Source of the DNA: an uncultured Parachlamydiaceae bacterium
GTDB lineage: Bacteria > Chlamydiota > Chlamydiia > Chlamydiales > Parachlamydiaceae
Assembly: GCA_963752155.1 (NCBI GenBank)
Contig: CAVVXH010000022.1
Location: 1 to 51,690, forward strand
Length of the DNA: 51,690 bases
Reading direction: 5' to 3'
In this document: positions 7,472-7,971 of the stretch, one piece after another
Layout of the letters: every line of letters starts with the position of its first letter
How positions within the stretch are numbered: the first letter of the stretch is position 1
The notes under the pieces: generated by a model
Database searches by the model: none
What the model was told of the DNA's origin: nothing
Seen by the model: only the letters and a program-made list of their open reading frames with translations
Position numbers and translations under genes: made by a program

Positions 7472-7576
7472 TGTAGACGTAATCAACGATACAACGATAA
7501 AAACGATAGGAATAGGAACGATAAGAACGATAGGAACGATAAAAACGATAGGAACGATAAGAACGATAAGAACGGG
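7472..7576 (+). repeat. Tandem array of 9-mer AACGATARR (about 10 units), left arm of fold-back cassette
   Basis: Units aacgataaa, aacgatagg and aacgataag run from 7485 to 7576, preceded by tgtaga..tcaacg. Confidence 0.95.
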
Positions 7577-7642
7577 AAAATTTGTGGAATTCCTCAGTAC
7601 CTGACAGATTTCTTAAAAATTTCTTCGAGAGTCGAAAAGTCC

Positions 7643-7851
7643 TCATTGCTTTGCAGTCTTTTCCAATTGCCTATGCCGGAAATTTACTAACAAACCGACA
7701 TACATAGGCCGATCTGTCTCATCGCAATCAATAGCGCATTTTTGTAGACTTTTTCCAGAAATCCTGGCCCAAGCTCCTTCATGACCTCAAAACAACAGTT
7801 CAGAATGGCGCCCGTCAATTCATGATAAGCTAATTTCTTGTCTTCTTCCAT
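7643..7851 (-). pseudogene. GxxExxY-family protein (PD-(D/E)xK-like), internally deleted
   Basis: Not in the ORF track. ATG 7851 gives MEEDKKLAYHELTGAILNCCFEVMKELGPGFLEKVYKNALLIAMRQIGL (G-F-L-E-K-V-Y), stop 7687. A shifted frame then gives the family C-terminus YVGLLVNFRHRQLE. The central core is missing. Confidence 0.85.
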
Positions 7852-7971
7852 CGTTCTTATCGTTCTTATCTTTCCTAATCGTTCTTATCGTTCTTATCGT
7901 TCCTATCGTTCTTATCGTTCTTATCGTTCCTATCGTTCTTATCGTTCTATCGTTTATACCGTTGATCTACA
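7850..7971 (-). repeat. Tandem array of 9-mer AACGATARG (about 12 units) on the minus strand, right arm of the cassette
   Basis: The plus strand reads (atcgttctt/atcgttcct)n and ends gttgatctaca, the inverse of the left array. Confidence 0.95.

Follow-up and report, generated by a model that had tools for sequence, protein, structure and literature searches.

A GxxExxY nuclease-like gene between inverted AACGAT-box arms: a candidate selfish nuclease-plus-repeat cassette in an uncultured Parachlamydiaceae bacterium

Within a window of 51,690 nucleotides from an uncultured Parachlamydiaceae bacterium (assembly GCA_963752155.1, contig CAVVXH010000022.1; "the window" designates this whole stretch of analysed DNA), we identified a cassette in which a gene of the GxxExxY family, with a predicted PD-(D/E)xK fold, is placed between two inverted arms made of AACGAT boxes. 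Comparisons across the genome and its relatives support this cassette as repeat-bounded selfish DNA. In the explanation that we favour, with about as much confidence as doubt, the intact GxxExxY protein would recognise and cut its own arms and host repair would spread and remodel the units, with hitchhiking in MITEs as a second route of dispersal. The protein would bind the arms of its own unit and nick or cut the DNA there, after which host repair would copy, flip, delete or expand the unit, be it intact or dead, the growth of the arms probably resulting from slippage or break repair. The sequence-specific binding and cleavage by the GxxExxY protein is proposed from these patterns, and part of the dispersal does take place by hitchhiking within unrelated MITEs bounded by TIRs and TSDs. 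To our knowledge, no strand-joining activity has been described for such a nuclease alone. A further reading, possible but rather doubtful, would assign GxxExxY to a kind of mobile DNA not described so far, of which it would be the only enzyme and in which a 140-aa nuclease of Cas4/lambda-exonuclease fold would read the four-box 9-8-9 arm of its own clade, cut it, and mobilise both autonomous and gene-less units with no need of a transposase and no target duplication, its specificity differing from clade to clade.

The layout of the window copy is summarised in Table 1. Two AACGATARR arrays are inverted around a GxxExxY remnant of 54 codons, TRF detecting a direct array of AACGATAAG (10.4 copies, 7485-7574, forward strand) and a facing array of the reverse complement of AACGATAAG (11.7 copies, 7850-7954), in agreement with the initial annotation, which had counted about 10 and 12 facing units. 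As it had also perceived, the ATG of the gene is the tail of the final box (AACGATG), and the arms can pair across many 9-nt registers (90-98% pairing). The Shine-Dalgarno function also suggested there for AGG-containing units is conjectural. The folded strand reached -205.9 kcal/mol (z -13.8), none of 100 shuffles being equally stable, and the RNA stem predicted from either strand is very stable (z -13.8 and -12.4), the start codon being paired within it. No sigma-70 or terminator signal was found within the cassette.

Table 1 Features of the cassette and its flanks, in window positions
Feature	Position	Strand	Match
S2, a captured flank: distal half of the ~235-nt spacer found uninterrupted in a G001 copy	7360..7471	+	87% identity to the G001 spacer
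Inner end B (TGTAGACGTAATC), common to many copies in the window genome	7472..7484	+	
3' arm, about 10 AACGAT boxes facing inwards; one 8-nt unit, then 9-mers	7485..7574	+	
GxxExxY 3' remnant, not in frame with the ORF (master nt 323 to about 435)	7593..7698	-	
Deletion junction, 6 filler nt replacing master nt 148-322	7699..7704	-	
Truncated GxxExxY ORF, 54 aa	7687..7851	-	
5' arm, about 12-13 boxes, the last box giving the ATG	7846..7963	-	
S1, a captured flank from the proximal part of that ~235-nt spacer; ragged end without target duplication	7964..8045	+	
hicB-like gene, 5' fragment stopping at the element's right end	8046..8157	-	PF15919, E 7e-4, 20.2 bits against a cut-off of 27 (weak, below the Pfam cut-off)

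The bounds had to be revised, the 500 bp delimited in the initial annotation (7472 to 7971) being shorter than the stretch homologous to other copies, which runs from 7360 to about 8045. The S2 flank lies on the 3' side of the gene, and an identical flank arrangement is found at C6:4847-5502 in the window genome. The ends of the window copy are ragged, without TIR and, as had been noticed, without target duplication. The motif TGTAGA..TCAACG, proposed as a mark of both ends, is indeed read at either outer side, but TGTAGA belongs to the captured flank: one G001 copy has TGTAAA at its 3' end, and a short (A/T)TC/TT is the only lead into the first box common to intact relatives. At the right of the element a hicB-like gene appears, from its sequence, to be cut off, and a second copy of this fragment was not found in the window genome.

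The enclosed reading frame is a GxxExxY gene, as had been proposed, since its 54-aa product scores 40.5 bits against TIGR04256 (cut-off 35) and 39.6 bits against PF13366; these families are the only domain matches of the enclosed gene, with neither GIY-YIG nor HUH-Y1. A single intact gene remains among the AACGAT loci of the window genome, a 141-aa master at C10:276544-277355 with a GxxExxY score of 138.7 bits and an intact core. The window copy corresponds to master nt 1-147, 6 filler nt and nt 323 onwards (175 nt missing); the first 49 codons of its ORF differ from those of the master by 5 base changes, and its right break at 323 is common to four other copies. Because master nt 148-322 are deleted, E54, D72, E82, K84, Q96 and Y100 are missing, in keeping with the loss of the core already suspected. 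These six residues are predicted to be catalytic by analogy with the known PD-(D/E)xK motif; in 43 sequences, E33, E82, K84, Q96 and Y100 are invariant and E54 and D72 occur in at least 90%. The window copy is, as judged from its sequence, a dead, internally deleted and non-autonomous derivative.

The AlphaFold model of the master (pLDDT 88) has Cas4 SSO0001 and lambda exonuclease as its best Foldseek matches (E 3e-5), and the predicted structure adopts a restriction-endonuclease-like (PD-(D/E)xK) fold, for which alone a middling Z of 8.3 (rmsd 4.0, 102 aligned) speaks. No solved structure was found by sequence search (best E 0.55). Intact GxxExxY genes are under purifying selection: dS was measurable in 39 of 78 pairs, for which the median dN/dS is 0.09 (the other 39 were saturated; two of the 13 rows compared are out of frame, raising the maximum).

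The window genome contains 89 arrays in 46 intergenic loci, of which 26 contain gene sequence (one intact, 25 deleted) and 20 do not detectably do so, and none of the 46 is spanned by an ORF of at least 120 aa. Adjacent AACGAT boxes occur 522 times genome-wide, against 1.7 in base-shuffled genomes. Two deletions recur at unrelated sites among the 24 aligned copies, 11-215 in eight of them and 64-322 in four, and the deletion junctions as aligned show only 0-2 nt of microhomology, so that slippage at long repeats is not evident. Furthermore, two end types lie beside the arms, in the order A-gene-B in seven copies and B-gene-A in two; as one of the latter belongs to the 11-215 class, the interior flips between the arms. 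Identical deletions at unrelated sites and flipped interiors together imply that dead copies spread in trans, presumably supplied by the C10 master. One of the loci forms a pure palindrome, bounded by end B at either side. The S2 and S1 flanks of the window copy are the distal and proximal parts of the spacer, in an order permuted relative to the contiguous G001 spacer, and other loci of the window genome display a closed arm-spacer-arm junction with 115-118 nt between arms; such permuted spacers and closed junctions point to a tandem or circular precursor. A second GxxExxY clade is present in the same genome (C6:157328 and C4:110655), with CRCAAAG arms and 86 CRCAAAG arrays. Elsewhere in the window, a back-to-back CACAGAG palindrome of ~118 bp (15917-16034) resembles in sequence the arms of other GxxExxY clades joined by their outer ends; CACAGAG arms number 60 genome-wide, nearly all paired 34 nt apart.

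The association of gene and arms extends to relatives, GxxExxY being detected in 47 of the 60 related genomes searched. An inverted arm pair scoring at least 14 was found at 51 of the 78 homologous loci with enough flank (13 of them from one genome) versus 1 of 269 shifted control windows; the sets of homologous loci and of genomes may overlap, and their counts are kept separate. In 20 chlamydial loci picked by hand, exactly four boxes were counted in 26 of 40 arms and a 9-8-9 or 9-8-8 spacing in 23 of 40, a constancy of number and spacing that fits protein-binding sites better than random slippage. The outer part of the window 5' arm keeps the 9-8-9 spacing of this four-box arm and continues inwards as expanded 9-mers, so that the long arrays are a lineage expansion of it. 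In addition, the 3' arm of the same locus is the best match to the 5' arm at 21 of 66 loci (about 1 expected), and the words AACGAT, AATGAT/CATGAT, CAGGAT and CAC.GA track protein clades in a quick tree (62 rows, excluding 12 of the 13 loci of the multi-copy MAG and short-flank and partial rows). The covariation of unit sequence with protein clade that the initial annotation proposed to test is thus recovered, and, as kin share labels, such agreement is no proof of co-evolution.

Triple-box arrays were present in 15 of 61 family genomes, all of them gene-bearing, and in 0 of 13 gene-less genomes (Fisher p 0.015, kin not being independent), and 33 of 48 gene-bearing genomes lack the AACGAT array word. 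This co-occurrence of arrays and gene would be expected from shared descent too. The proposal of a repeat-bounded selfish or mobile cassette is sustained by the frequency of arm pairs at homologous loci, by words that follow the protein tree and by positions that differ between genomes. Gene-less four-box hairpins occur in four genomes (G005, G018, G022 and G023). In G022 and G018 (L106, L108, L111, L114, L120, L128 and L131), four-box AACGAT hairpins are nested next to CRCAAAG-type arms, so that different clades have their arms clustered at shared sites.

The positions of the cassettes were also compared between genomes. At the relative locus L015 the cassette separates rnhC and recN, which lie 14 nt apart in the window. 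Among 28 loci of relatives, both neighbours are within 5 kb in the window genome for four, and L015 alone of these four has a clean short empty site there; the interval equivalent to L037 also contains an array composite. For the window cassette itself, a search of relatives for an empty site 3' of recN had been suggested. recN is present in 4 of the 5 relative genomes checked, none of which has an array 3' of it, but a base-level empty site was not found on the recN 3' sides of these four (L089-L092), as the downstream DNA differs in each and one contig stops 300 nt past the gene. The region 3' of recN may act as a hotspot of insertion. Beside the arms of 17 relatives, no duplication exceeded 4 nt. 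Some longer homologues carry the GxxExxY domain in-frame within LepA, RecG, a transketolase-like protein and a U32 peptidase, as seen in protein sequences, with repeat-like linker peptides, and in Bacteroidota (L063, L069-L071, L076 and L088) the cassette lies between genes that we take to be leuC and leuD.

Part of the copies are carried by other elements. Four array composites of 911-987 bp are located inside members of a MITE family with exact 9-bp TSDs, whose terminal repeat CAGCAATTCCCGCTAA has 169 matches genome-wide, including those at 9430, 16050 and 49847 in the window. Many elements of this family measure 54-165 bp, often with 9-bp TSDs, and no copy of transposase length was seen among pairs under 4 kb. 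Three-layer nests were found at C7:60668, C11:318794, C15:118586 and C21:92159, where a 9-bp-TSD MITE is followed by an inner TIR element, with what we presume to be a transposase C-terminus, and then by an AACGAT arm-spacer-arm junction. In another chlamydial MAG, 13 loci with intact GxxExxY (L026-L079) are placed in a TIR unit of ~716 bp, with abutting direct repeats of 92-368 bp at 5 of the 11 copies with both ends. Long direct repeats are described for IS1634/IS1549-type elements in the part of PMC2266710 cited here, and by analogy the ~716-bp unit may be IS1634-like; no IS1634 transposase above cut-off was found in the window genome. As the copies of that MAG multiplied inside the TIR unit, other transposases can be the source of the highest copy numbers, and, given such MITE- and TIR-borne copies, a high copy number alone does not suffice to show that the unit is mobilised by GxxExxY. 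On the reverse strand, the window also encodes an RRM protein with a GDR-repeat tail (8686-9090) and, at 9736-10243, a YafQ toxin whose partner is RelB-like.

These carriers are also what gives some weight to an explanation that we nevertheless hold to be unlikely, in which the protein does another job, for instance as a defence or addiction nuclease, and its arms are an autoregulatory operator or an RNA stem over the start codon, spread by capture in other elements, slippage and RecA-type inversion. It would accommodate the position of the start codon, which belongs to the last box and pairs within the predicted stem, the MITE-borne copies with TSDs, the lack of TSDs at the arms themselves and the nesting next to other repeats, 25 of the 46 loci being within 350 bp of another repeat family versus 24% of random intergenic points (six families, picked post hoc after the flanks had been seen). 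However, none of these six families is near the other 21 loci, which include the window copy and the master; an operator needs no mirror arm 3' of the gene; the in-frame insertions in essential proteins, at the protein level, leave scant room for foreign TIRs; and no PADLOC match was better than E 0.013. There is a smaller chance that a separate transposase acting in trans (RAYT/HUH or DDE) has the arms as its substrates, with GxxExxY as cargo or accessory. Two RAYT-like proteins are encoded in the window genome (L103, at C10:596.7 kb, with a weak DnaA-like C-terminal match, and L104, at C11:40.8 kb), but each gene is bordered by its own, different repeat (399 and 108 motif matches, respectively). 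Similarly, GTAG near both outer ends of the window copy, and at one G001 end, would suit such an enzyme but is missing from most relatives' arm ends, and the REPIN-like appearance of gene-less hairpins is to be set against arm words that track the GxxExxY tree and against 82 longer homologues in whose Pfam accessions no transposase domain was seen (12 confirmed by scan, the others read from the accession alone).

The possibility, raised in the initial annotation, that the arms pair in RNA and that the ORF loop is excised from the transcript as an intervening sequence appears improbable. The loci occur in all four gene orientations (12 ++, 14 --, 12 divergent and 8 convergent), the domain is retained in the in-frame protein insertions, RNA excision does not explain the DNA copies, and no Rfam match near the gathering score was obtained at 7300-8100, the cassette being located 3' of recN and not in an rRNA gene, whereas the very stable stem predicted on both strands and the location of some homologues within operons, presumably leuC/leuD for example, would favour it. 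Finally, we give hardly any credence to the long arrays being an assembly artefact or plain slippage repeats without tie to the gene: arrays are short in G001, as this would have it, but long arms (median 10 boxes and up to 54 in the window genome) are also present in G002, G070, L015 and L038, three unit variants (431 AAG, 236 AAA and 188 AGG) are mixed in orders particular to each locus, and the arrays are mainly inverted pairs around gene remnants.

Cleavage of its own arms by an intact GxxExxY nuclease, with remodelling by host repair, would have implications beyond this genome. GxxExxY is widespread and has no assigned function. The window genome provides what a direct test of its function requires: an intact enzyme, the putative target word of this enzyme, an internal control in the form of a second clade with a different word, and some two dozen deletion products of natural origin. 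If the protein does cut its own arms, it would represent a third chemistry in the nuclease-plus-cognate-repeat design, after the HUH RAYTs and the GIY-YIG Ssn, while providing a cause for bacterial inverted 8/9-mer arrays and a source of small site-specific nucleases.

Several known systems share part of this architecture. Like the cassette, ORF-bearing intervening sequences of 23S rRNA place the reading frame in a loop closed by a long stem; the cassette differs from them in lying outside rRNA and in having many copies between divergent genes. Both the remnant and the master belong to the GxxExxY / PDDEXK_3 family (PF13366), for which the pertinent passage of PMC3424549 gives the function as "Unknown" and draws no link to flanking repeats or mobility. 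Pairs of inverted heptamer arrays have been reported in Xanthomonas, tied to no gene family in the portion of PMC4692102 cited here, and MITEs carrying tandem repeats are represented by BrickBuilt (as described in part of PMC4596501). Like MITEs and insertion sequences, some array copies are found in units that end in TIRs and have direct repeats, either of 9 bp or long and variable; by contrast, the arm-gene-arm core has no TIR or TSD of its own, the window copy is not in such a MITE, and the carrier elements vary between genomes.

The closest resemblances are with systems that pair a small enzyme with its repeats. The REPtron, which associates RAYT/TnpA-REP with REP/REPIN sequences (in the sections of PMC3116915 and PMC6006769 cited here), likewise combines a single intact gene for each repeat type with numerous extragenic inverted doublets that are non-autonomous, several gene-repeat pairs being present per genome. 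The GxxExxY cassette differs in having no HUH-Y1 domain and no conserved GTAG/GGAG foot, in arms made of tandem boxes, and in a gene that changes place and leaves deleted copies, whereas those same sections describe REPtrons as not transposing as a unit. In Ssn nucleases (Chenal et al. 2025, PMC11893778, in the part cited here), a small single-domain gene lies between cognate repeats (NTS/SRM) and activity has been shown; here also the gene is flanked on both sides by its cognate repeat, which is dispersed genome-wide, and gene-repeat pairs vary between lineages. Ssn proteins have a GIY-YIG fold, whereas that of GxxExxY is PD-(D/E)xK; SRMs are, in the same part of that source, hairpins of 20-50 nt, whereas the AACGAT arm is built of tandem units and has the opposite arm as its only pairing partner; and site-specific cleavage of ssDNA has been demonstrated for Ssn, whereas GxxExxY is known from its sequence and predicted fold. 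A description of the GxxExxY-plus-arms unit was not found in the open-access literature covered. By analogy with these systems, GxxExxY and its arms apparently constitute an undescribed family of the nuclease-plus-cognate-repeat type, REPtron- and Ssn-like in design and equipped with a PD-(D/E)xK enzyme.
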